Shown here one piece after another: positions 17,730 through 58,873 of a stretch of DNA of 64,000 nt. This stretch comes from Deltaproteobacteria bacterium (GTDB lineage: Bacteria; Desulfobacterota; G020345765). The notes under the pieces are model-generated. The model did not search any database and was not told the DNA's origin. It saw only the letters and a list, made by a program, of their open reading frames with translations. Numbering within the stretch: position 1 is the first letter of the stretch; every line of letters begins with the position of its first letter. Location of the stretch: NCBI GenBank assembly GCA_020345765.1, contig CP070770.1:2868612-2932611 (forward strand), in the 5' to 3' direction. The translations under genes and the position numbers were made by a program.

Positions 17730-18118
17730 AGCTCGTTTTTACCTGAAAGCCATTTGACTTGTTTTTGTATAATTCCGGCATGATACTTATTTCTTGCCAT
17801 TAGCAGACCCACTTAGATTTTCATCTATCATTTTATCTTATCAATGTGTACCCTAGTCTTCTTATAAATTGAATCCCTATTCTTTTGACCCCACCAAAGG
17901 CAGGGCTCAGGACAGGATTCACGCATTATTTGGGTTAAATACCACCTATATATTCCTTTAACGAGATATAAAAGTAGTATTGCCATTATTTTGTTTAAAT
18001 TAATGCCACCCATAGACTGTCTTGTCAAGAAAATAATACAGTTTTACGGTTGTGTTATTTAGGTTTTTTACATTGTATACTGTGAACTTATTAACAGAAG
18101 AAGATAACGGGAGGATAC

Positions 18119-18451
18119 ATGAGAAGCAATCCAGGATGGGGCGGGAAACTCAGGGAATTAAGAAAGATGAGGGGAATGACCCAGGAAGAGCTCGCCGAAA
18201 AGGCAGGCCTTCATTGGAAATTCATCGGGGAGGTGGAAAGAGGCGATTCCGATATAAAACTGGGCAATATTGCCCGGATAGCTAATGGCCTGGGAATGGA
18301 GCTAAATGAATTACTGGAATACTGCTTCCCGAAAGTGGTACGCTCTAGGGAAGAAGAGGAAGTAGTAGGGCTATTAATGAAACTGGTAGGGAACAATGAT
18401 AAAAAGAAGATTCAGAAGTTGAAGATCTTCATAGAAGAGATATTGGAGTAA
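18119..18451 (+). CDS. XRE-family helix-turn-helix protein (paralog 1)
   Basis: 110 aa. The HTH is LRELRKMRGMTQEELAEKAGLHWKFIGEVERGDSDIKLGNIARIANGL. RBS GGGAGG precedes the ATG. Confidence 0.8.
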   Translation: MRSNPGWGGKLRELRKMRGMTQEELAEKAGLHWKFIGEVERGDSDIKLGNIARIANGLGMELNELLEYCFPKVVRSREEEEVVGLLMKLVGNNDKKKIQKLKIFIEEILE

Positions 18452-18565
18452 AGCCATCTAGGATAAAGTTGCGGGGAGGGACTTCGACCCTGTATATTCA
18501 CTTTCCGGGGATAAATGATTATATCTCCCACTGATCCTTTATCCCACTCTGTCTCATATACTAAA

Positions 18566-18587
18566 TGTCTCATCTGTTAATGAGACA
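18566..18587. promoter_or_regulatory. perfect inverted repeat TGTCTCAT-N6-ATGAGACA (candidate UAS/operator)
   Basis: TGTCTCAT is at 18566-18573 and ATGAGACA at 18580-18587. Extra TGTCTCAT half-sites lie at 18550-18557 and 18689-18696 (the latter partnered with ATGAAACA at 18722-18729). Confidence 0.5.
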
Positions 18588-18818
18588 CTATCTTTCTCAC
18601 CAGCATATCCGCAATTATCCTCAGAATAGGCATTAATATTGTAGATTATAGCAATAGTCCAGATCTTACTAGGTTGTAGGGTAGTCCGTGTCTCATTACT
18701 GTATTATTCAAATTTATAAAAATGAAACATGTTACGGTTTTTTATTGTCGGCAGTTTATTTTACTAAATATCTTTATTTTCAATTAGTTAGAAGCATTTG
18801 CTACGGTCAAGGCAGACC

Positions 18819-18834
18819 TGGCATAATCTTTGCT
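18819..18834 (+). promoter_or_regulatory. sigma-54-type promoter TGGCAT-N5-TTGCT
   Basis: GG is at 18820-18821 and GC at 18832-18833, with canonical 12-nt G-to-G spacing. It is preceded at a fixed 25-nt gap by the AT-rich block ATATCTTTATTTTCAATTAGTTAGAA (18768-18793, IHF-site-like). It lies 70 nt upstream of the XRE paralog 2 ATG. Confidence 0.65.
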
Positions 18835-18903
18835 AATAAATATTAAATAGATAGACCAGATCGATAATATTATCATCTCAACAATACTTTACAAGGGGGA
18901 CAT

Positions 18904-19236
18904 ATGAGAAGTAATCCAGGATGGGGCGGGAAAATAAGGGAATTAAGGAAGATGAGGGGACTAACCCAGGAGAAGCTTTCGGAAAAGGCAGACCTTCACT
19001 GGAAGTTCATCGGGGAGGTGGAAAGGGGCGATTCCGATATAAAGCTGGGCAATATTGCCCGAATAGCCAAGGGTTTGGGAATTGAACTAAATGAATTACT
19101 TGAATACTGCTTCCCGAAGACGGCCCGCTCCGAGGAGGAAGAAGAAGTAGCAGGGCTATTAATGAAACTGGTATGGAAAAGGGATAAAAAGAAGATCCAA
19201 AAGTTGAAGATCTTCATAAAAGAAATATTGGAATAA
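18904..19236 (+). CDS. XRE-family helix-turn-helix protein (paralog 2)
   Basis: 110 aa, differing from paralog 1 at 15 of 110 residues by my alignment. Similarity continues past the stop codon (shared GGACTTCGACCC). Confidence 0.8.
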   Translation: MRSNPGWGGKIRELRKMRGLTQEKLSEKADLHWKFIGEVERGDSDIKLGNIARIAKGLGIELNELLEYCFPKTARSEEEEEVAGLLMKLVWKRDKKKIQKLKIFIKEILE

Positions 19237-19277
19237 GTCCGCCAAGAGTAGAGTTGAAATGCGAGTCTGGACTTCGA

Positions 19278-19294
19278 CCCCGCCAAAGGCGGGG
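19278..19294. terminator. GC hairpin CCCCGCC-AAA-GGCGGGG between convergent genes
   Basis: This is a perfect 7-bp stem with a 3-nt loop. It sits between the XRE paralog 2 stop and the hisB stop (19296). There is no clear U-tract. Confidence 0.45.
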
Positions 19295-19295
19295 C

Positions 19296-19886
19296 TTAAG
19301 TTAAGGTCCCCTTGGTGGACATCAGCCCTTTTATTCTCTCATCCAGACTGGTGGCTTGGTCCATGGCCTGGGCAAAGGCCTTGAATATTGCCTCGATGAT
19401 GTGGTGGTAATTACTCCCGTAGGCTAAATTTATGTGGAGATTAGTCCCACTGTGGAGGGAAAAGGCCGAGAAGAAAACCTCGATTAGTTCAACTTCAAAG
19501 TCTCCTACCTTTCCCCGGGGAATCTTTGCGTTATAGACCAGGAAGGCTCTTCCCCCAAAATCAACATTTACCTGGGCAAGCGACTCATCCATGGGCACCG
19601 AGGAAAAACCGTAGCGGGTGATCCCTTTCTTGTCGCTGACAGCTTTTTTGAATGCCTCACCCAGGCAGATGCCTAGGTCTTCGACCGTATGGTGGTAGTC
19701 AACCTCGGTATCTCCCACGGCACTGATCTTCAGGTTAAACAGACCGTGCCGGGCCAGTAATTCCAACATGTGGTCCATAAAAGGGACGGTGGTGGCAATC
19801 TCGTATTTGCCGGTTCCGTCTAGCTTGAGCTCGACAGTAATTTCTGTCTCTTTTGTCTTCCGCTTAATCTGGGCACTTCGCTTCAT
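19296..19886 (-). CDS. hisB: imidazoleglycerol-phosphate dehydratase
   Basis: 196 aa. Motifs [21 protein letters not shown] and HHTVEDLGI are typical of IGPD. Confidence 0.9.
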
Positions 19887-39362: not shown

Positions 39363-39806
39363 AAGAATTATTAGGACGGTGATTGGAGGATGGATAGTTG
39401 AGTCGCGAATAATGACCGTTTCCCTCGTAATTAATCCTGTCCATCGGTAAAGGGCTATTTACAGACATTACTTTTTTACATCTTATATATAACTTTTTGT
39501 AATATGGAATCCGAGGCGTGGTTGTAGAATAGGTGGATATCAAGAAATACTTTAATTTCAAGCAGTTAAAGAATTTATAAGTGTAGAAATAATATCTAAA
39601 TGCGCTCTCCCAGTAATACACTATCAACAGGAGAAACAGGGGCGGTATCCCCGAATTTACCGGAGGCGCTGTAAATAGTAATAGAGTCATTCGAAGGTAG
39701 CAGTGTCTAAGTTGTTGTTATAATTATTCTTTTTCTATTATCCGGAGATTGGGTCAAATACACTCTGCCTACCCCGCTAAAGAAACTTTTTATTCCCGGA
39801 CATTTT

Positions 39807-39822
39807 TGGCATGTAGTTTGCT
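39807..39822 (+). promoter_or_regulatory. sigma-54-type promoter TGGCAT-N5-TTGCT
   Basis: GG is at 39808-39809 and GC at 39820-39821, with canonical spacing. It lies 76 nt upstream of the SPOR-protein ATG. Confidence 0.55.
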
Positions 39823-39897: not shown

Positions 39898-40863
39898 ATG
39901 TTTGACCAGGAATCAGAGGAAAAAACCCAGGAGGGGAAAAATCTGTTTGAACAATTGATTGAAGACGATTTTTTCAAGCCGGCTGATGACGATATCTCGC
40001 CTCCGGAAAAAGACCAGAACGTTGAGGAGGCTAAACCTCGGGCAAAGTCATTCTTAGAGGAGGAAGCCCCGGTTGAACTGTTCGAAGAGGACTCCAAGAA
40101 ATTAATACCAGACGAGGAAATTCCAGTAAGAGCCTATTCCGGCAGAAAGGAGAGGAAAGGGATCGATCGGAATAAAATCGCTTTGGTTGGCGGGGGAAGC
40201 CTTGTGGTATTGTTTTGCTTGATCACCTTTGGCACCAAATACCTCGGGGCCGGGGAAGGGCAAGGCCTCGTTGAACTCCCGGGGGAACAGCACCTGATTA
40301 AACCACATGCCTCAACCGAGCTGGTTGTCCCTACACCACTACCGAAAAAGGCTGATGTAAAACCGACTGCTCCTCAAACCGTTGCGGCCAGGACAGTCTC
40401 CCAGCAGGTTCCTGAATTTACCCTGGAGGTCGGCCGGTACAGCAAGGATGAACTCGCCAGTTCCCAAAAAAAACTTATTCGGCTGGGACTATCGACTTCT
40501 ACCGTCAGAGAGAATAAGACCACCGAGGTCAAGTATGTGACAATAGACCAGAAGTTTAACAAGGACCAGGCCCGGGCGGCCTCGATAAAGCTTGATTTTG
40601 TCGGGGGAGTTAAGAACAGGATTGTAAATCAGAAAGAAGGAACATTTACCGTCCAGTCGGGGCCCTTTAGCTCAATGGGTAAGGCGGTTGAGGCCAAAAA
40701 CAAGATCTCTCAATTGGGCTTTGCTGCCCGGATAGATTTTCGATCCGCCACCAGCACAGTCTACCGCTTAAGGGCGGGGGAATTCGTTACCCGTTCCGAT
40801 ACCGAAAAAACCTCTGAGCTCTTACGGCAGAACGGCTTTGCGCCCAAAGTAATAAAGCTATAA
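39898..40863 (+). CDS. SPOR-domain (septal peptidoglycan-binding) protein
   Basis: 321 aa. It has an acidic N-terminus, one TM segment (IALVGGGSLVVLFCLITFG) and two SPOR-like repeats (FTLEVGRYS...; FTVQSGPFSSMGKAVEAKNKISQLGF). Confidence 0.75.
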   Translation: MFDQESEEKTQEGKNLFEQLIEDDFFKPADDDISPPEKDQNVEEAKPRAKSFLEEEAPVELFEEDSKKLIPDEEIPVRAYSGRKERKGIDRNKIALVGGGSLVVLFCLITFGTKYLGAGEGQGLVELPGEQHLIKPHASTELVVPTPLPKKADVKPTAPQTVAARTVSQQVPEFTLEVGRYSKDELASSQKKLIRLGLSTSTVRENKTTEVKYVTIDQKFNKDQARAASIKLDFVGGVKNRIVNQKEGTFTVQSGPFSSMGKAVEAKNKISQLGFAARIDFRSATSTVYRLRAGEFVTRSDTEKTSELLRQNGFAPKVIKL

Positions 40864-51821: not shown

Positions 51822-52562
51822 ATGAAACATGGATTGTTCATAACCGGAACCGATACCGGAGTAGGGAAAACCCTGGTCACCGCCGCACTCGCTTCCCTAC
51901 TTCGGGCGGAAGGAATAGATGTAGGAGTAATGAAGCCGGTCGAAAGCGGTTGCCCGCGGCAGAAAGGGAAGCTTGTGCCCCAGGACGCCCTTTTTTTGCG
52001 GGAGGCAGCCGGGAGCGAGGATGACCTGGAGCTGATCAATCCCTGCCGACTCGAAGCCCCTTTAGCTCCCAGCCTGGCGGCGGAAAGAGAGGGGGTGGAG
52101 ATTAACCTGGGAAAACTGATTGAGTGCTTTCAGACATTGAAAGAAAGACATGATTTTATTTTAGTTGAAGGGGCCGGGGGGCTGCTGGTTCCACTCAAGG
52201 AAAGGTATCTGGTTTCCGATCTTGTTCAGCTATTCCAGCTTCCCCTCCTGATAGTCGCTGCCTCCCGGCTGGGGGCAGTCAACCATACCCTGTTGACAAC
52301 AAGATGCGCCCAGTCCCTTAAGATCGAGATAGTCGGAGTAATCCTCAATAATCTGGAGGAGGAAGGAGATACAGCATCCCGGAGTAATCCCCATCTGCTC
52401 CCGCATTTACTGGAAGTTCCCCTCCTTTGTGTGATCCCCTTTATTCCCCGGATTCACGAATTGAAGAAAGAAAAGCTGGCGGGTCTAATTAAAGAAAGGA
52501 TCAGTCTTTCTGTGCTCGTGGGAGGTCCAGAGCAATCAAACCCTGATCCCGGAATTTCTTGA
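51822..52562 (+). CDS. bioD: dethiobiotin synthase
   Basis: 246 aa. P-loop FITGTDTGVGKT. The start abuts the bioA stop. Confidence 0.85.
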   Translation: MKHGLFITGTDTGVGKTLVTAALASLLRAEGIDVGVMKPVESGCPRQKGKLVPQDALFLREAAGSEDDLELINPCRLEAPLAPSLAAEREGVEINLGKLIECFQTLKERHDFILVEGAGGLLVPLKERYLVSDLVQLFQLPLLIVAASRLGAVNHTLLTTRCAQSLKIEIVGVILNNLEEEGDTASRSNPHLLPHLLEVPLLCVIPFIPRIHELKKEKLAGLIKERISLSVLVGGPEQSNPDPGIS

Positions 52563-53535
52563 TGATCTTGATCACCTGGGATGACTTAATCGGGCTGATG
52601 GCAACGATTGCCTTGATACTCTTAGCACCGTCAATCCGGGAGATTATAAAGCCGGCCTGGGAAGGAAAGCTCTTTTGCTCGAGTTCCTTTTTGGCAATAA
52701 TCAGATGGGGAACCAATTTGATATCGATCCCCTCGATCTCCGGTGGGTAAACATTTGCTTCCAAAGACTGCGGATCAAGGGCGGTTATTTTAGTAATTAC
52801 ATCTTCATCCGGGGCAAAACAATATTCGTCTTCCACGATGTGGCTTGTATCGATCCAGCCATTGTTGTAAAGCTCATAGAGTTGAGAATAAAAGGGAAAC
52901 GGGAGAATATGAAGCCGGTAGATCATCTCCCCGATAGTCTTGCCTTCCATAATTAGTTCCTCAATGGCTTTTCCCTTTAGAAGACCGGAGGGCAGTTCAG
53001 CGTCATCCCTTTTAAGCTTGAGTACGGTCTCATCGGAGGTGAAGATTTGTCGGAACCGCTTCCATTCATCACTGCGATACGTACCCTCCATCGCGATGCT
53101 GTCTGGGTTGATAGAGACCCGGATTTTTAGATCCGGGGGGAGCTCGTCTTCAAGGAAGATGAAATAGCCGTCATCCCAGACAAAGATGTCGTAGATAGTT
53201 TCCACCACCTTAATCGAGAGGACATCGCTTATCTGGCGCTCATTCATCAGGCCGGTCATTACCAGAATGTCACCAATATGAGCCTTGGTTTCCGTCTGGG
53301 TTTCCAGGGCCAGGATCAGGTCAATCTCCCCCATTCTTCCGTAGCTGAGCAGAAATTGTCCCAGGTACTCCCGGGGATTATTGGAGTTGGATGAGATGAT
53401 CGTTCCTTCCTGGAAATAGACCCATTTGATCCATTCTTGCCACTGGATGACCATGGTGCCCGTCTTTCTGGATGCCCCTATCCACTGGATAAGGTCAGCG
53501 AGACTCATGGTAGATAATGTTCCTTCTAAGGCCAT
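52501..53535 (-). CDS. DUF4388-domain protein with C-terminal GFxxSRxDG module
   Basis: 344 aa. The N-terminus LEGTLSTMSLADLIQWIGASRKTGTMVI...VYFQEGTII fits the DUF4388 pattern. The C-terminus is QAGFIISRIDGAKSIKAIVAISP...IKKFRDQGLIAL. Confidence 0.7.
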   Translation of the reverse strand: MALEGTLSTMSLADLIQWIGASRKTGTMVIQWQEWIKWVYFQEGTIISSNSNNPREYLGQFLLSYGRMGEIDLILALETQTETKAHIGDILVMTGLMNERQISDVLSIKVVETIYDIFVWDDGYFIFLEDELPPDLKIRVSINPDSIAMEGTYRSDEWKRFRQIFTSDETVLKLKRDDAELPSGLLKGKAIEELIMEGKTIGEMIYRLHILPFPFYSQLYELYNNGWIDTSHIVEDEYCFAPDEDVITKITALDPQSLEANVYPPEIEGIDIKLVPHLIIAKKELEQKSFPSQAGFIISRIDGAKSIKAIVAISPIKSSQVIKIIKKFRDQGLIALDLPRAQKD

Positions 53536-53545
53536 TTTCCTTACA

Positions 53546-54301
53546 CTAACCGGCGGGGTTTCGGGTTAACTCCTGGCTGATAAAGGTAGGCGGTCGGGCC
53601 TCAATCTCCCTCTTTACCGTCTCATACTTATCCTTGGTGCCCAGATCTACCCAGTATCCTTCCATTTGGTATCCATAGACTCTTTTGCCCTTCCGGATCA
53701 ACTCGATATAGGTATCATTTATTGAGGAGAAGATGTCGGCAGGGATGTATTGAAAGATCTCGGGCTCGAAGATATGGATCCCGGTAAACATGAATTGTTT
53801 CAGATCCTGCCCGGATTCATCAGGAATTTTGTCCAGGAATTGCCGAATTCTACCCTCCCGATCGATCTCGATGACACCATAGGAATCTTTGTTTTCCTCA
53901 CTGCGTAGTACCATCGTAGCTAATGCTTTCTTTTTCTGGTGAAAATCCATTGCCCCGTTCAAGTCGAAGTCAACCAGAATGTCACAGTTAATAACCAAAA
54001 ATGTATTTTTTGGGAAAAATCCCTCCACTTTTTTAATTCCACCTCCGGTGCCGAGGATCTCCGGTTCGTCAGAGTAGCTTATCTGGAGTCCGAGCTGGGA
54101 GCCGTCTCCTAGTTCTTCTTTAATGGACTGGGGATGATGGTGGAGATTAATAATGATCTCATTGAACCCCCATTTCTTTAAGAAAGCAAGGGTGTAGTTT
54201 ATTTAGGGACGGCCGGAAAGGGGAAGGAGAGCCTTGGGAATCCCTTTGGTCAGCGGAAGCAAACGGGTACCATAACCGGCAGCCAGGATCATTGCCTTCA
54301 T
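53546..54301 (-). pseudogene. MurU-like sugar-1-phosphate nucleotidyltransferase interrupted by an in-frame TAA at codon 33
   Basis: From ATG 54301: [32 protein letters not shown], then TAA (complement of 54203-54205), then INYTLAFLKKWGFNEIIINLHHH...GTGGGIKKVEGFF... in the same frame, running into the 53546..54028 ORF. Homologs have Leu at the stop position (GxPLI). Confidence 0.6.
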
Positions 54302-54322
54302 ACTTTCTCTCCGCACTGACTT

Positions 54323-55435
54323 TTACCTAAATTCTTCCACATATTTCTCCAATACCTGTTTCAACTCTTTTAGATAGTCATACTTATCTAAATTCTTCTT
54401 GACATAACCTAAGGTGGGAGCAATGTACTTGAGATAACGGTCGTTGTTTTTAGCCAGGTTGATATACCCAAACCTACCGGCGGCCTTCAGGTTCCGCTGA
54501 ATACTGGTTAGATCAAAGAGTTCCCGGAACTCGGTGCGGTCGATCCGGATCCCCTCGATGTCTTCCTTTCCGTCCAGGTAATAGTGGATCATTTCATCGA
54601 TAAAACTCTCCTCTAGGGTCAGGTAGGAATCCCTGAGCAGAGAGGCGAGATCATACTGACAGGGCCCCAAAAGGGCATCCTGAAAATCAAGGATTTTAAT
54701 CTGTTCGTTCTGAACGATCAGGTTACGACTGTGATAATCACGATGGGTGAAATAACGGGGCTGGCTCGATAGCCTCTCAGAGATCTGCTTAAAACTTCTT
54801 TGGATTATTTTTCGGTCCCTATTGGGAACCTCTATGCCGTGAAGTTTCTCAATTCCATATTCAAGGAAGTGCTCAAACTCCCACATAAAAAGTTGGGTAT
54901 TAAAGGCCTGACGAAAGGCAAAGCAATGGGCGTCCTTCCTTTCAGTCCCCCGGAACTGAAGCTTGATCAGCTCATCAACGGCCTTCCGATAATACTTTCT
55001 CTGGATTTTCCGTTCCTTTCCCTTAACCTTTTCCTCCAAAAGGGTTTCGCCTAGGTCCTCCAGAAACAGGAGGCCCCGGCCTTCATCGTAATGATAGAGC
55101 CGGGGGACATTGAGCCCGCAGAGATGGAGATGCCTTAAGATATTAATGAAGGGGAGCTCGTCAAAGGTTTGGGATATGGTCGATATTTCCTCGGAGACAA
55201 TTTGAGGATCAGGTTGATTAAGTTTCATCAGGATTATAGAGTTCTGCCCACAACCCGCTACCGCATCCCGGAGCCTGACCCGATAGTAGCTCCGATTAGA
55301 GGCATCCCCGGCCAGCCTTTCCAGCTCTATATCCTTTACCGAGGGAACTAAGGATTCCCTGATTGATTGGATTACTATGCGCTTCATTTGATTGAGATTA
55401 TCAAAAATTTTACTACCCAACCTAATCTCTGTCAA
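54323..55435 (-). CDS. aminoglycoside-phosphotransferase-fold kinase, AmgK (anomeric MurNAc/GlcNAc kinase)-like
   Basis: 370 aa. It has the Brenner motif HRDYHSRNLIV and ILDFQDALLGP. It lies directly upstream of the MurU-like gene, as in the AmgK-MurU pair. Confidence 0.65.
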   Translation of the reverse strand: MTEIRLGSKIFDNLNQMKRIVIQSIRESLVPSVKDIELERLAGDASNRSYYRVRLRDAVAGCGQNSIILMKLNQPDPQIVSEEISTISQTFDELPFINILRHLHLCGLNVPRLYHYDEGRGLLFLEDLGETLLEEKVKGKERKIQRKYYRKAVDELIKLQFRGTERKDAHCFAFRQAFNTQLFMWEFEHFLEYGIEKLHGIEVPNRDRKIIQRSFKQISERLSSQPRYFTHRDYHSRNLIVQNEQIKILDFQDALLGPCQYDLASLLRDSYLTLEESFIDEMIHYYLDGKEDIEGIRIDRTEFRELFDLTSIQRNLKAAGRFGYINLAKNNDRYLKYIAPTLGYVKKNLDKYDYLKELKQVLEKYVEEFR

Positions 55436-55490
55436 ATCCCAGATTCGTAGTCCATCGGAATACAGAAACTTACTGTTTCAATTAATATAA

Positions 55491-55515
55491 TGTCTCATTT
55501 ATATTTAATGAGACA
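55491..55515. promoter_or_regulatory. perfect inverted repeat TGTCTCAT-N9-ATGAGACA (second copy of the candidate UAS)
   Basis: TGTCTCAT is at 55491-55498 and ATGAGACA at 55508-55515. A further TGTCTCAT at 55626-55633 is partnered with ATGAGAAT at 55647-55654. Confidence 0.5.
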
Positions 55516-55741
55516 CTTTATGCCTATTAATTTATCTGGATCTATTATTCCCCCCATAATATACCATATTTCTTGGGGGTATTCAGCTTGTTCGGAAGTA
55601 TCTTTCTGGAGACTGTATATTAAACTGTCTCATTTAGAATAATTAAATGAGAATTGCCTGATTTTTTATTTACATAAATAAATTATATTAATATCTTTAT
55701 TTTCAAATAGTTAGAAAAAGCGATTAGGATTGTGACAGGTT

Positions 55742-55757
55742 TGGCATACTCTTTGCC
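55742..55757 (+). promoter_or_regulatory. sigma-54-type promoter TGGCAT-N5-TTGCC
   Basis: GG is at 55743-55744 and GC at 55755-55756. It is preceded at the same 25-nt gap by ATATCTTTATTTTCAAATAGTTAGAA (55691-55716). That block matches 18768-18793 at 25 of 26 positions. Confidence 0.6.
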
Positions 55758-55933
55758 AATAATAGAATTGAACGTTAAGAAAGGCAAGTTTTTCCGTAGA
55801 GTCATAAAGTTACATAAAATTACTCTAAGTAGGGTAAGAGAGCTTTTTCACCTATATCACTCTTCCTGAGCCAATCAAATGGGCTGATATAATTGAGTAT
55901 AAGTGGCAAGAGTAGAGCAAGGCGACTTTTTTC

Positions 55934-55962
55934 TTGACAAAAGACGCAAAATTTTATATAAA
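55934..55962 (+). promoter_or_regulatory. sigma-70-like promoter (TTGACA-N17-TATAAA)
   Basis: TTGACA is at 55934-55939 and TATAAA at 55957-55962, about 70 nt upstream of the J-protein ATG. Confidence 0.5.
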
Positions 55963-56030
55963 AAGTTGCACCCTTGTGTAATCAGTTAAAAAATTTGTTC
56001 TTCTATCCGATTCGGAAAAAGTATTAATAT

Positions 56031-57272
56031 ATGCAAGAGAAAGATCTTGTCATAGGGTCGGAAACCCTGAAGTATCGACCGAGAATCAACCAGTCTCTGG
56101 ATCTCCGCAAACTTAGCATTGATCCTAAGGAAGGATTTCTTCTTTCGAGGGTAGATGGTAACACCAGTGTGGAACAACTCCTGATGGTGAGCGGTATGGA
56201 TCGGGAGGAGACAATGCAATCCCTGTCTAAGCTTCTCAAACAGGGAATAATTTTCTTCGCAGAGAAACTGAAGGAAAAAACCGAGAGAAAAGAACAAGGA
56301 GCACCGTATAGTCAGGTAAAGGGCAAGAAAGCCGAGAAAGAGGAAGATTGGGTAGTAGATGAGGGGGTGGAGATTTCTGAGAAAGATAAGGAGAAGATCC
56401 ATTCCACTTACAAATCTCTGGGTAATCTTAATTATTATAAGATCCTGGGAATTGAAAAGGGTGCCGATCAGCGAAAAATCAAGAGTGCTTATTTCAGCCT
56501 TTCCCGGGAGTTTCACCCGGATCGCTACTTCCGTAAATCCATCGGTAGATATAAGAGCATGTTGGAGAATATTTTCAAGAAGGTTTCCGAAGCCTATGAG
56601 ATACTCTATGATCCCCATTCTCGGGAGGAGTATGATAAGAGCATCATATCCGATATATCCGAGGAGAAGATAATCGAGGCCCGGAAACAATCGGAGAAGC
56701 CGATCCGGAAAGGGCATCATCTGGACAAGGCACTCCAGCCAATTATAGAGAGAATGGGTAAGGCCAAAGGCTTTTATAAGACGGGGAAGAAAGATGTTCT
56801 CGATAAAAATTATAAGTCTGCTAGTGTAAACTTCAAGCTGGCCGTCGCTTACGATCCTTACAATGAGCAGTATAAGGAGAGCTTGGCCGAGGCTCAGGAG
56901 ATTGTTAAGAAGCAGGAGTCGGAGAAGCTGATAAGGAGGGCTGCCTTTGAGGAAGAGGTTGGCAGGTTCGCCGATGCCCTGAAACTTTTGGAGCAAGTGG
57001 TTCAGATCACCTCGGACAATCCCGAGCCCTATCACAAGATGGCACAGTTACTTCTTAATCATAACCGGGATCTCCGTCAGGCGAAGAACTACTGCCTTCG
57101 GGCAATAGACATGGATTCAGATAATACCGAGTATTATCTGACCCTCGGATCGATTTACGAAGCTGCCGGGCTTTTCCGCAATGCCGCCCGGGAGTTCCAG
57201 AAGGTATTAAATTTAGATAAGGGAAATTCTGAGGCCCAGGAAGGTTTGAAGAGGTTAAAGAAATTCCACTAA
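56031..57272 (+). CDS. J-domain protein with N-terminal GFxxSRxDG module and C-terminal TPR repeats
   Basis: 413 aa. It has KEGFLLSRVDGNTSVEQLL...LLKQGIIFF (aa ~33-76). The J domain is NYYKILGIEKGADQRKIKSAYFSLSREFHPDRY, with an intact HPD. The C-terminus has TPR-like repeats. Confidence 0.8.
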   Translation: MQEKDLVIGSETLKYRPRINQSLDLRKLSIDPKEGFLLSRVDGNTSVEQLLMVSGMDREETMQSLSKLLKQGIIFFAEKLKEKTERKEQGAPYSQVKGKKAEKEEDWVVDEGVEISEKDKEKIHSTYKSLGNLNYYKILGIEKGADQRKIKSAYFSLSREFHPDRYFRKSIGRYKSMLENIFKKVSEAYEILYDPHSREEYDKSIISDISEEKIIEARKQSEKPIRKGHHLDKALQPIIERMGKAKGFYKTGKKDVLDKNYKSASVNFKLAVAYDPYNEQYKESLAEAQEIVKKQESEKLIRRAAFEEEVGRFADALKLLEQVVQITSDNPEPYHKMAQLLLNHNRDLRQAKNYCLRAIDMDSDNTEYYLTLGSIYEAAGLFRNAAREFQKVLNLDKGNSEAQEGLKRLKKFH

Positions 57273-57298
57273 GGTCAAGTTAGAGAGGAAGAAAGGCA

Positions 57299-58873
57299 AT
57301 GGGAAAAGTTATCGGTATTGACTTAGGTACTACTAATTCCTGTGTTTCCGCAATGGATGACGGGCGTCCGATCGTTATTCCCAGCAAGGCGGGATACCGA
57401 ACCACCCCCTCGGTATTTGCGGTAACCGAAAAGGACAAGAAACTGGTCGGTCATCTTGCCAAGCGGCAGGCAATTACCAATCCTAAAAACACCATATATT
57501 CGGCGAAAAGACTCATTGGCCGCCGCTTTAGTTCACCCGAGGTAAAGAAGGCAACCAAGACCTATTCCTACCAGATTACGAAAGGTCCCCACGATGATGT
57601 GCGCGTTATCAGCGGAGGTAAAGAGTACAGCCTTCCCGAGATCTCGGCAATGATTCTCCTGGAGATGAAGAGAATCGCGGAGGAGTATCTGAGAGAAAAG
57701 GTTACCGAGGCAGTAATTACCGTTCCTGCTTACTTCAATGACAATCAGCGTCAGGCTACCAAGGACGCCGGAATTGTGGCCGGTCTGGAGGTTCTGCGTA
57801 TTATCAATGAGCCGACGGCAGCTGCCCTGGCCTACGGGATGATTAAGAAGAGGCGGGAGGAGAGGATAGCCGTTTATGACCTGGGCGGAGGTACCTTCGA
57901 TATCTCCATTCTGGAGCTGGGGGCCGGTGTCTTCGAGGTAATCTCGACTGCTGGCGATACTTATCTCGGGGGGGAAGATTTTGATACGGGGATAATGGAT
58001 TACCTGGTTGAGGAGTTCTCCGGGTCAACGGGAATCAATCTGAGCGACGACCGGATGGCCCTTCAGCGACTCTCGGACGCCGCCGAGAAGGCCAAATGTG
58101 AGCTTTCCGCGGTGAAGGAAGCACAAATTAATCTGCCGTTTATTGCCTCGGATACCCGGGGTCCCAAGCACCTTGACCTAAGGTTGACCAGAGAGAAGCT
58201 TGCGGAATTGACCAAGGATATCGTGGAGAGAACGATCAAGATCTGTGAGGAGACAATTCAGCAGGCAAAGCTAAACAAGAAAGACATTAATGAAGTAATC
58301 CTGGTGGGAGGACAGACCCGCAGCCCACTGGTCCAGGAGATGGTAAGGAATTTCTTCGGCAAACAGCCGCACAAGGGAGTCCATCCTGATGAGGTGGTGG
58401 CCATAGGGGCGGCAGTGCAGGCCGCCGCACTCACCGAGGAGAAAACGGAGCTACTGCTTTTAGATGTTACCCCACTATCCCTGGGGATCGCCACCCACGG
58501 GGGATTCTTTACCCCACTGATTGAACGGAATACTACCGTCCCCGTCCGCAAGAGTCATATATTCACCACTGCCCGGGATGATCAAACCACGGTTAAGATC
58601 CGGGTGCTTCAAGGGGAAAGTGACCGGGCGGATGATAACGAGCTTTTAGGAGAGTTTATGCTGAGCGGTATCCGCAAGGCCAAAAAGGGAGAGCCGGAGA
58701 TCGATGTTAGCTTCGATATCAATGCCGACGGGATAGTGAATGTTTCCGCGAAGGACTTGGAAACAAAGAAGGAGCAATCCATAACGGTTACCGCTTCGAG
58801 CGGCCTTACCGAGGATGAGGTTCGCCAGATGGCGGAAGAGGCTCAAATGTACGAACTGGAACTGAAGCAATAA
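57299..58873 (+). CDS. atypical short Hsp70 (DnaK paralog lacking the helical lid)
   Basis: 524 aa. NBD motifs [22 protein letters not shown] and VILVGGQTR are present. The SBD-beta region is present. The protein ends (…[25 protein letters not shown]) where the canonical DnaK lid begins. Confidence 0.85.

Follow-up and report, generated by a model that had tools for sequence, protein, structure and literature searches.

A predicted enhancer-dependent promoter cassette upstream of one of two paralogous XRE regulator genes in an uncultured sediment deltaproteobacterium

Introduction

The classical promoters that join an upstream enhancer, integration host factor (IHF) and sigma-54 include those of the XylR-Pu (TOL plasmid), NifA-nifH, NtrC-glnAp2, GlrR-glmY and OrpR-orp (Desulfovibrio) systems. 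Here we describe a locus of similar layout in a 64-kb stretch of the genome of an uncultured sediment deltaproteobacterium (contig CP070770.1), the whole of which is referred to as the window. Two paralogous genes for small XRE-family helix-turn-helix (HTH) regulators, XRE1 and XRE2, lie there between treT and hisB, and only XRE2 carries upstream of it arrays of the octamer TGTCTCAT, a 26-nt AT-rich block and the sequence TGGCAT-N5-TTGCT. We call this control region, at 18550-18834, cassette L1, and a second cassette at 55.5 kb, which lacks an XRE gene, cassette L2 or the orphan cassette. Like the classical promoters, the L1 cassette has a fixed spacing of the -24 GG and -12 GC, a putative AT-rich bend site between promoter and enhancer, and repeated sites 100-300 bp upstream, and in neither case need the activator gene adjoin the promoter. 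It differs from them in that each cluster consists of three half-sites (two direct and one inverted), with a distal dyad whose spacing varies, in that the bend block is nearly invariant over 26-30 nt, and in that TGTCTCAT is not tied to a known activator.

The closest precedent is XrpA of Cereibacter sphaeroides, an XRE regulator that is transcribed from a sigma-54 promoter by way of RpoN3 and a bacterial enhancer-binding protein (bEBP) of its own, AprX (PMC11999139). The two systems are likened by regulatory layout, not by sequence: in both, a small XRE regulator stands (here by prediction) under sigma-54, with a promoter conserved 5' of its orthologues. The XrpA system is alphaproteobacterial, an AprX homologue co-occurs with xrpA, and its targets are ctrA and chpT; unlike XrpA, the regulators described here have several paralogues per genome, one of them with a different promoter, and there is in addition the orphan cassette. 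IHF acting between enhancer and sigma-54 promoters has been described in Deltaproteobacteria (PMC7962754).

The XRE proteins share their five-helix HTH core with the restriction-modification (R-M) controller proteins C.BclI, C.AhdI and C.Esp1396I, small dimeric autoregulators that act on inverted repeats, and paired genes for C homologues are known (PMC2632904). They differ from the C proteins in having no R-M genes nearby, in possessing two additional C-terminal helices (77-109), in the position of the repeats (115-295 nt upstream of the -24/-12 element, and not in a C-box at the promoter), and in the predicted sigma-54 class of the promoter. Mobile or reused promoters that move without insertion sequence (IS) elements have been surveyed by Nijveen, Matus-Garcia and van Passel (PMC3575422); the orphan cassette resembles these in placing a promoter region 5' of a non-homologous gene, dnaJ-TPR, with no associated IS element, and differs in that it looks like a decayed promoter-plus-gene module and not a lone moved promoter. 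Particular to this locus are the motif TGTCTCAT, the grouping of half-sites in threes, a 30-nt block that hardly varies, a dispersed, multi-copy module with promoters of two types, and the orphan copy.

The locus appears to be a compact, exceptionally clean instance of a whole sigma-54-type control region from an uncultured sediment deltaproteobacterium, and would be the second case, after Cereibacter XrpA, of an XRE regulator under sigma-54 control. Its two paralogous and several orthologous cassette copies show which bases are under constraint, and the TGTCTCAT arrays provide a candidate enhancer motif that can be used to find the activator and its regulon in whole genomes. The orphan cassette 5' of a chaperone operon makes it possible to put promoter reuse to the test. 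The cassette leaves the general understanding of sigma-54 regulation unchanged.

Results and Discussion

The control region of XRE2

The features of the locus are collected in Table 1. An earlier note on this DNA had placed a control region before the second XRE gene only, with a perfect palindrome TGTCTCAT-N6-ATGAGACA at 18566-18587, further half-sites at 18550 and 18689, and the AT-rich block followed by a match to the sigma-54 consensus; we find each of these, at the coordinates it gave. The second complete cassette (55474-55757) and the degenerate inverted partner ATGAAACA in the proximal cluster are additions to that account. The promoter element reads TGGCATAATCTTTGCT, with GG-N10-GC spacing, and predicts transcription of XRE2 from about 18845, 12 nt after the GC, with a leader of about 58 nt. 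Measured from this start, the distal half-site cluster (upstream activating sequence 1, UAS1) lies at about -295 to -258 and the proximal cluster (UAS2) at about -156 to -116; the palindromes had earlier been put at about -125 and -250, which is right as to enhancer range and slightly too close to the promoter. The core segment ATATCTTTATTTTCAATTAGTTAGAA of the AT-rich block occupies 18768-18793, and within it TTTCAATTAGTTA (18778-18790) fits the IHF consensus WATCAANNNNTTR with the single mismatch already reported, T for A at 18779. An A/T-rich tract, AAATATCTTTAT, lies 5' of this IHF-like match, and the predicted site falls between the enhancer clusters and the promoter.

None of these elements is expected at the observed frequency. 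The octamer TGTCTCAT occurs eight times in the window against 1.35 expected, a count reached in none of 100 shuffles, and seven of the eight sit in two clusters. The pattern TGGCAY-N5-TTGCW is found twice (0.06 expected) and the block core WTTTCAANNNGTTA three times (0.06 expected). The two exact matches to the promoter pattern, and a TTGCC variant at 55742, are all intergenic and aimed at a downstream gene. We think it probable, on these grounds and on those of conservation given below, that 18550-18834 is an enhancer-dependent promoter cassette of the sigma-54 class that controls XRE2. A small open reading frame (ORF) beginning at ATGTCTCAT, with 23 aa in L1 and 50 aa in L2, was considered and rejected, as it is not conserved and L001, a related locus, has CTG and an early stop.

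Table 1. Coordinates in the window of the XRE locus, the orphan cassette and the adjoining chaperone genes.
Feature	Coordinates	Strand	Basis or remark
XRE1-type upstream region, no -24/-12 element	18004..18118	+	alignment with L004; also L026, L025
XRE1, HTH_3 regulator of 110 aa with two additional helices at the C terminus	18119..18451	+	ORF, translation, Pfam HTH_3 E=4e-12
UAS1, distal half-site cluster: TGTCTCAT at 18550 and 18566 (direct, 16-nt period), ATGAGACA at 18580-18587 (inverted)	18550..18587	+	
Extra conserved stretch ACCAGCATATCCGCAATTATCCTCAGAATAG between clusters	18599..18633	+	32-33/35 bases identical in L001, L003b
UAS2, proximal cluster: TGTCTCAT 18689-18696, degenerate TGTATTAT 18700-18707, inverted ATGAAACA 18722-18729	18689..18729	+	
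AT-rich 30-nt block TAAATATCTTTATTTTCAATTAGTTAGAAG, IHF-like, centre about -65	18765..18794	+	25-26/26 bases invariant, six cassettes
Sigma-54-type -24/-12 element TGGCATaatcTTTGCT (GG 18820-18821, GC 18832-18833)	18819..18834	+	pattern count and conservation
XRE2, 110-aa paralogue of XRE1 behind the cassette	18904..19236	+	ORF, BLASTP, Pfam HTH_3
Shared 3' flank TGCGAGTCTGGACTTCGACCC into hairpin TTCGACCCCGCC-AAA-GGCGGGGCT, abutting hisB stop codon	19260..19296	.	
Orphan cassette, 486-nt insertion between TGTCAAA and CGACTTTTT, APH / dnaJ-TPR intergenic region	55437..55922	+	
Orphan UAS1, degenerate and perfect half-sites	55474-55515		
Orphan UAS2, degenerate and perfect half-sites	55614-55654		
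Orphan block	55691-55716		25/26 bases identical
Orphan -24/-12 element TGGCATactcTTTGCC / TGGCATACTCTTTGCC	55742-55757		predicted start about 55768
Possible decayed XRE start GGGTAAGAGAGC	55832-55843		weak resemblance
XRE 3'-end remnant	55892-55917		26-nt match to XRE2 last codons and 3' flank, 19227-19253
dnaJ-TPR gene	56031..57272	+	Pfam DnaJ, TPR
hsp70 gene, after dnaJ-TPR	57299-58873	+	

Conservation of the cassette among copies and relatives

A word-based search showed the XRE protein family to be small, with 15 matches, from sediment metagenomes and metagenome-assembled genomes (MAGs) labelled Deltaproteobacteria. In three other metagenomic lineages XRE orthologues are preceded by the cassette: L001 (GCA_004196275) has a full cassette 5' of an 82%-identical XRE gene, L003 (MAG CSMAG_2661) has two cassette-plus-gene units (L003a and L003b) 1.7 kb apart with a PIN/AbrB-like pair between them, and L015 has the promoter-proximal half of a cassette at a contig end. 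A third XRE paralogue of the same genome, P0004, 80% identical, is on the same 3.417-Mb contig outside the window. The more distant homologues L016, L022 and L023 (35-56% identity) have no canonical cassette, no further half-site clusters were found in the fetched loci, and neither the viral contig nor the plasmid collections gave a match.

Alignment of six cassettes (L1 and L2 from the window, L001, L003a, L003b and L015) shows that YTGGCAT and CTTTGC are invariant, as are 25-26 of the 26 bases of the block, and that the flanks vary, as do the four bases between the -24 and -12 elements, which are AATC, ACTC, GCCC or GTCC. Invariant -24/-12 bases with a drifting spacer are the pattern expected of a sigma-54 promoter. 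In every copy 25 nt separate the block from TGGCAT. UAS1 occupies -295/-258 in L1 and -294/-253 in L2, UAS2 -156/-116 and -154/-114 respectively, and the block is centred at -65 in both, with diverged sequence between the elements. Both clusters are kept in L001, L003b and L2, where the proximal one reads TGTCTCAT-N13-ATGAGA(CA); it thus keeps N13, and the distal dyad is spaced N6, N8, N8 and N9. The conserved stretch at 18599-18633 is not kept in the orphan cassette. The upstream regions of L1 and L001 are about 77% identical and third codon positions 71%, so that the whole control region appears to be constrained. Taken together, these comparisons support the view that the TGTCTCAT arrays are conserved together with the AT-rich block and the -24/-12 element, and that all three function as a unit.

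The alignment also bears on two other readings of parts of the cassette. The -24/-12 match might be used by another holoenzyme at an overlapping sigma-70-type promoter, or the block might be the real promoter element, and a consensus scan does list weak overlapping pairs, TTGCTA-N18-CATAAT at 18798-18827 and TTGGCA-N16-TAGAAT at 55741-55768. These hexamers are in different register in the two copies, however, and are no commoner than in shuffled sequence, and it is the bases of the sigma-54 consensus that do not vary; we regard this explanation as very improbable. The palindrome at 18566-18587 could be the intrinsic terminator of XRE1, and a terminator scan lists it as an 8-bp stem followed by CTATCTTTCT, but only three of its eight stem pairs are G-C, the half-site sequence is conserved while the spacer length changes, and extra direct copies flank the palindrome. 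The half-sites are moreover found in L001 and at the 55.5-kb copy without a co-oriented gene before them, so that no transcript runs into them there. The terminator reading fails on this ground, and we give it almost no credence.

In a metagenome scan for the block, matches were confined to the SDBV/SDBT lineage and one unrelated contig. The latter, Ga0335081_10004440 (L012; 56% GC), has an exact copy of the 30-nt TAAATATCTTTATTTTCAATTAGTTAGAAG at 2417-2446 on the minus strand, between a 444-aa gene, itself next to a gene for an extracytoplasmic function (ECF) sigma factor, and a gene for a zinc-ribbon membrane protein. This copy is without flanking similarity, -24/-12 element or half-sites, and is very unlikely to have arisen by chance.

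The surroundings of the cassette-plus-XRE units in related lineages (L001 1493-4025; L003 509-1145 and 2398-2899) are unlike the treT-hisB gap. There the units lie amid toxin-antitoxin genes, with a PIN/AbrB-like pair converging on the XRE gene and a HicA/HicB pair beside it, and also amid G+C-rich GGGAGAGG-type repeats.

The upstream region of XRE1

The region in front of XRE1 is of another type. Its proximal 110 nt are homologous to regions upstream of XRE genes in L004, L025 and L026, and the conserved parts are TTGTCA, 17 nt and T(A/G)CG(G/A)T, followed by TGTA(T/A)A(C/T)T; in the window these read TTGTCA (18022-18027), 17 nt, TACGGT (18045-18050), and TGTATACT (18074-18081). A ribosome binding site, GGGAGG, lies 7 nt 5' of the ATG. 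The earlier note had proposed that one gene has an ordinary promoter and the other an enhancer-dependent one. The absence of a -24/-12 element from the XRE1 region and the conservation of the cassette before XRE2 agree with this, but the hexamers resemble sigma-70 sequences only weakly and the consensus scan flagged no sigma-70 promoter for XRE1. The region is a conserved upstream region without sigma-54 elements, and we do not claim a sigma-70 promoter there as established.

The XRE proteins and the operator explanation

The two 110-aa genes of the earlier note are both present as ORFs, and its count of 15 differences in 110 residues agrees with an ungapped BLASTP alignment with 95 identities. 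Both proteins pass the PF01381 (HTH_3) cut-off of 23, with scores of 46.4 and 42.0 bits. XRE1 and XRE2 agree at every position of the stretch 31-55, in which the recognition helix falls, and would be expected on that account to recognise the same DNA. Of the 15 differences, eight are among the last 38 residues, and the two proteins may differ in partners or stability. An AlphaFold model (mean predicted local distance difference test score, pLDDT, of 80) has core helices at 5-17, 22-29, 33-40, 48-57 and 62-69, and beyond this five-helix XRE core a C-terminal helical hairpin formed by helices 77-91 and 95-109. When 1.8 billion representatives were searched with a profile, full-length matches were numerous among proteins of 105-120 aa; it follows that the protein architecture extends beyond this clade, to which the cassette is confined.

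Among proteins of solved structure the HTH domain comes nearest to C.BclI and C.AhdI (phmmer E=2e-8 and 3e-8, 36-42% identity), the core superimposes on theirs in Foldseek with a root-mean-square deviation of about 0.9 A over 60-64 residues, and the PADLOC Control_protein models match the protein at 1e-17. No R-M genes adjoin the XRE pair in the window, and the neighbours in relatives are toxin-antitoxin genes, hrcA or others. The window ORF list contains no co-oriented partner ORF or toxin gene beside the XRE genes, and a type II XRE/HipB antitoxin assignment was rejected for want of an operon partner toxin and because TIGR03070 scores 50 bits, below its cut-off of 71.65.

These likenesses underlie the main rival to an enhancer bound by a bEBP, namely that the TGTCTCAT arrays are operators through which XRE1 and XRE2 regulate themselves and each other, the sigma-54 promoter being activated by a bEBP bound elsewhere or acting from solution. 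Controller proteins bind inverted repeats 5' of their own genes (PMC2094064, PMC2504287), and wherever the arrays occur an XRE gene, or what remains of one, goes with them. The sites do not overlap the promoter, however, but are 115-295 nt upstream of it; XRE1-type promoters have no such sites; two three-half-site clusters at enhancer distance together with a bend site are the classical bEBP layout; and a sigma-54 promoter requires an AAA+ activator in any event. We judge the operator explanation unlikely.

In the assembly from sequencing run X1, word depth over 18240-18367, the most conserved part of the XRE coding sequence, climbs from about 6 to 15-29, and short contigs carry 1-3 mismatches there. 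Additional paralogues in the same genome or community would account for this.

A proposed mechanism and the evidence against it

If the cassette is an enhancer-dependent promoter, a bEBP encoded elsewhere would bind the two clusters of TGTCTCAT half-sites, centred at about -275 and -135, and an architectural protein, most likely IHF, would introduce a bend at about -65, in the invariant AT-rich block. Next, the activator would remodel the sigma-54 holoenzyme at TGGCAT-N5-TTGCT, and XRE2 would be made. XRE1, with the same recognition helix and a conserved upstream region of its own, could furnish a basal supply of regulator, and XRE2 a signal-induced supply acting on the same operators. The orphan copy may likewise feed sigma-54-dependent transcription into the dnaJ-TPR/hsp70 operon.

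Several observations weigh against this scheme. No rpoN, bEBP or IHF gene is present in the window or in any fetched locus: a six-frame translation of the window contains no GAFTGA-type motif and no RpoN box, and tblastn of the window with hand-entered NtrC, RpoN and IHF queries gave no match, which bears out the earlier statement that the window encodes no sigma-54 activator. The variable spacing of the UAS1 dyad is unusual for a rigid dimer site. The likeness of the XRE HTH to autoregulatory R-M controller proteins means that the palindromes could be XRE operators, as discussed above. The block is over-conserved for a generic IHF site, and this, with the lone copy in L012, suggests that it may bind something more specific than IHF. 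The locus sequence is found in DNA metagenomes only, apart from two metatranscriptomes in which 4% of the sampled words occur. As to the literature, our search found no paper linking TGTCTCAT to a bEBP, and the motif does not appear in the text of the Desulfovibrio sigma-54 regulome paper.

Age and duplication history of the XRE modules

XRE1 and XRE2 form a DNA repeat (18110-18409 and 18895-19194; 86% identity over 300 nt) with the 785-bp period described earlier. On the 5' side the likeness ends a few bases before each ATG; on the 3' side it extends, as the earlier note had observed, into the flank, where GGACTTCGACCC recurs at 18479-18490 and 19269-19280, and the spacing is 790 instead of 785 because of a 5-nt indel. 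The genes are 87% identical at the DNA level and only 74% at third codon positions, which indicates an old duplication. The gene tree groups sequences by lineage, separating the 110-aa GWGG forms of the window from the 112-aa GWGFGG forms of L001, L003, L004 and L015, and both promoter types are present in both groups. Such a mismatch between promoter type and gene tree suggests that the coding parts underwent gene conversion or that promoters were exchanged. Both promoter types are older than the split of the sampled lineages. The earlier idea of a tandem duplication is thus right as to the repeat itself; it does not hold as a simple local event with one copy later decorated, the paralogues being old and the cassette plus gene being, so far as these comparisons reach, an old, dispersed, multi-copy unit in a deltaproteobacterial lineage.

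A hairpin with stem TTCGACCCCGCC and GGCGGGGCT bounds the XRE modules. It is intact after XRE2 (19260-19296), truncated after XRE1 (18470-18490) and decayed upstream of XRE1 (17884-17907), and the same hairpin lies just 5' of the L001 cassette, at 2600-2623. The 17880-17915 version appears between different flanks in metagenome contigs and elsewhere in the genome, which identifies it as a dispersed repeat. Pieces of the XRE1-XRE2 locus were recovered in independent metagenome assemblies. In MAG CSMAG_2661 the treT contig (L021 4935-4996) ends 61 nt past treT, inside a different gene (MQMTKIEIQEMIGNGES...); the region 3' of treT therefore varies between relatives, and the XRE pair is no fixed neighbour of treT.

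The orphan cassette and the dnaJ-TPR/hsp70 operon

The second cassette of the window, in the intergenic region between an APH-type kinase gene and dnaJ-TPR, has TGTCTCAT octamers at 55491, 55508 (minus strand) and 55626. It is absent from the orthologous intergenic regions of L020, L017 and L019: L020 reads TGTCAAA-CGACTTTTT unbroken, and the window has 486 nt between the halves. The insert is found at >=99% identity in independent sediment metagenome assemblies from three studies. A tblastn search for an XRE coding remnant in this copy returned nothing significant. With its 3'-end remnant of XRE2 type (Table 1), the orphan is most simply read as a copy of the whole module that lost the coding region and kept every promoter element.

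Such a copy raises the question of whether the cassette is itself a mobile or repeat element, MITE-like (miniature inverted-repeat transposable element) or promoter-carrying, whose repeats are recombinase or transposase sites and whose likeness to a promoter is secondary. The unit is multi-copy and occurs in different genomic contexts, comparison with three related genomes shows the 55.5-kb copy to be a clean insertion, and a dispersed hairpin repeat bounds the modules. On the other hand, the insert at 55437-55922 is bounded neither by terminal inverted repeats nor by a target duplication, there is no gene for a transposase or integrase in the vicinity, copies are about 60-75% alike outside the motifs and not near-identical, and the viral and plasmid collections gave no match. 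The conserved parts are exactly those that a sigma-54 promoter predicts, so that mobility would explain the dispersal and not the choice of conserved bases, and we consider this explanation improbable.

At the same TGTCAAA/CGACTTTTT point L017 (3727-3865, compared with L020 3860-3870; SDBT/SDBV lineage) holds a different insertion of about 130 nt, at which GTCAAACGACTTTT is duplicated. The site looks like an insertion hot spot.

The dnaJ-TPR/hsp70 operon has a promoter of its own, TTGACA (55934-55939)-N17-TATAAA (55957-55962), which is conserved in L017 and L020. No terminator-like site is present on the plus strand between 55757 and 56031, and the 266 nt 3' of the orphan promoter fold no better than shuffled sequences (z = -0.18). 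A small RNA at the orphan copy is thus not supported, there being neither excess folding nor a terminator; with no terminator or structured RNA in between, transcripts from 55768 could reach dnaJ-TPR (56031) and hsp70. Rfam searches gave nothing at gathering scores in the window and nothing relevant at E<=1 around either cassette, and the idea of a tRNA fragment or att site was dropped, the window containing no tRNA.

A broader proposal, which we offer as doubtful, is that enhancer, bend site and promoter make up an independent regulatory unit, one that is copied and moved within these genomes whether or not the XRE gene goes with it, that the orphan has been kept because it places dnaJ-TPR/hsp70 under the same activator or titrates that activator, and that the 30-nt block is a specific site for an architectural protein and not a generic IHF site.

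The gene cluster at 52501-58873 is syntenic in three related lineages (the window, L017 and L020), and consists of genes for a DUF4388/PatA_N protein, an NTP_transferase and an APH-type kinase on the minus strand, and for dnaJ-TPR and an Hsp70/MreB-like protein on the plus strand. The listed start of the APH ORF (55435) is probably placed too far out and the true start further in, since a strong sigma-70-like site (55435-55407, minus strand) overlaps it.

Elsewhere in the window a third sigma-54-like element, TGGCATGTAGTTTGCT at 39807-39822, lies 76 nt 5' of a gene (39898-40863) for a 321-aa membrane protein with an FtsN/SPOR-like C-terminus. The region 39545-39822 is without TGTCTCAT sites, and 250 nt further upstream of the element is the block-like AAATACTTTAATTTCAAGCAGTTAAAGAATTT (39545-39576), an 11-nt inverted repeat with a 10-nt spacer.

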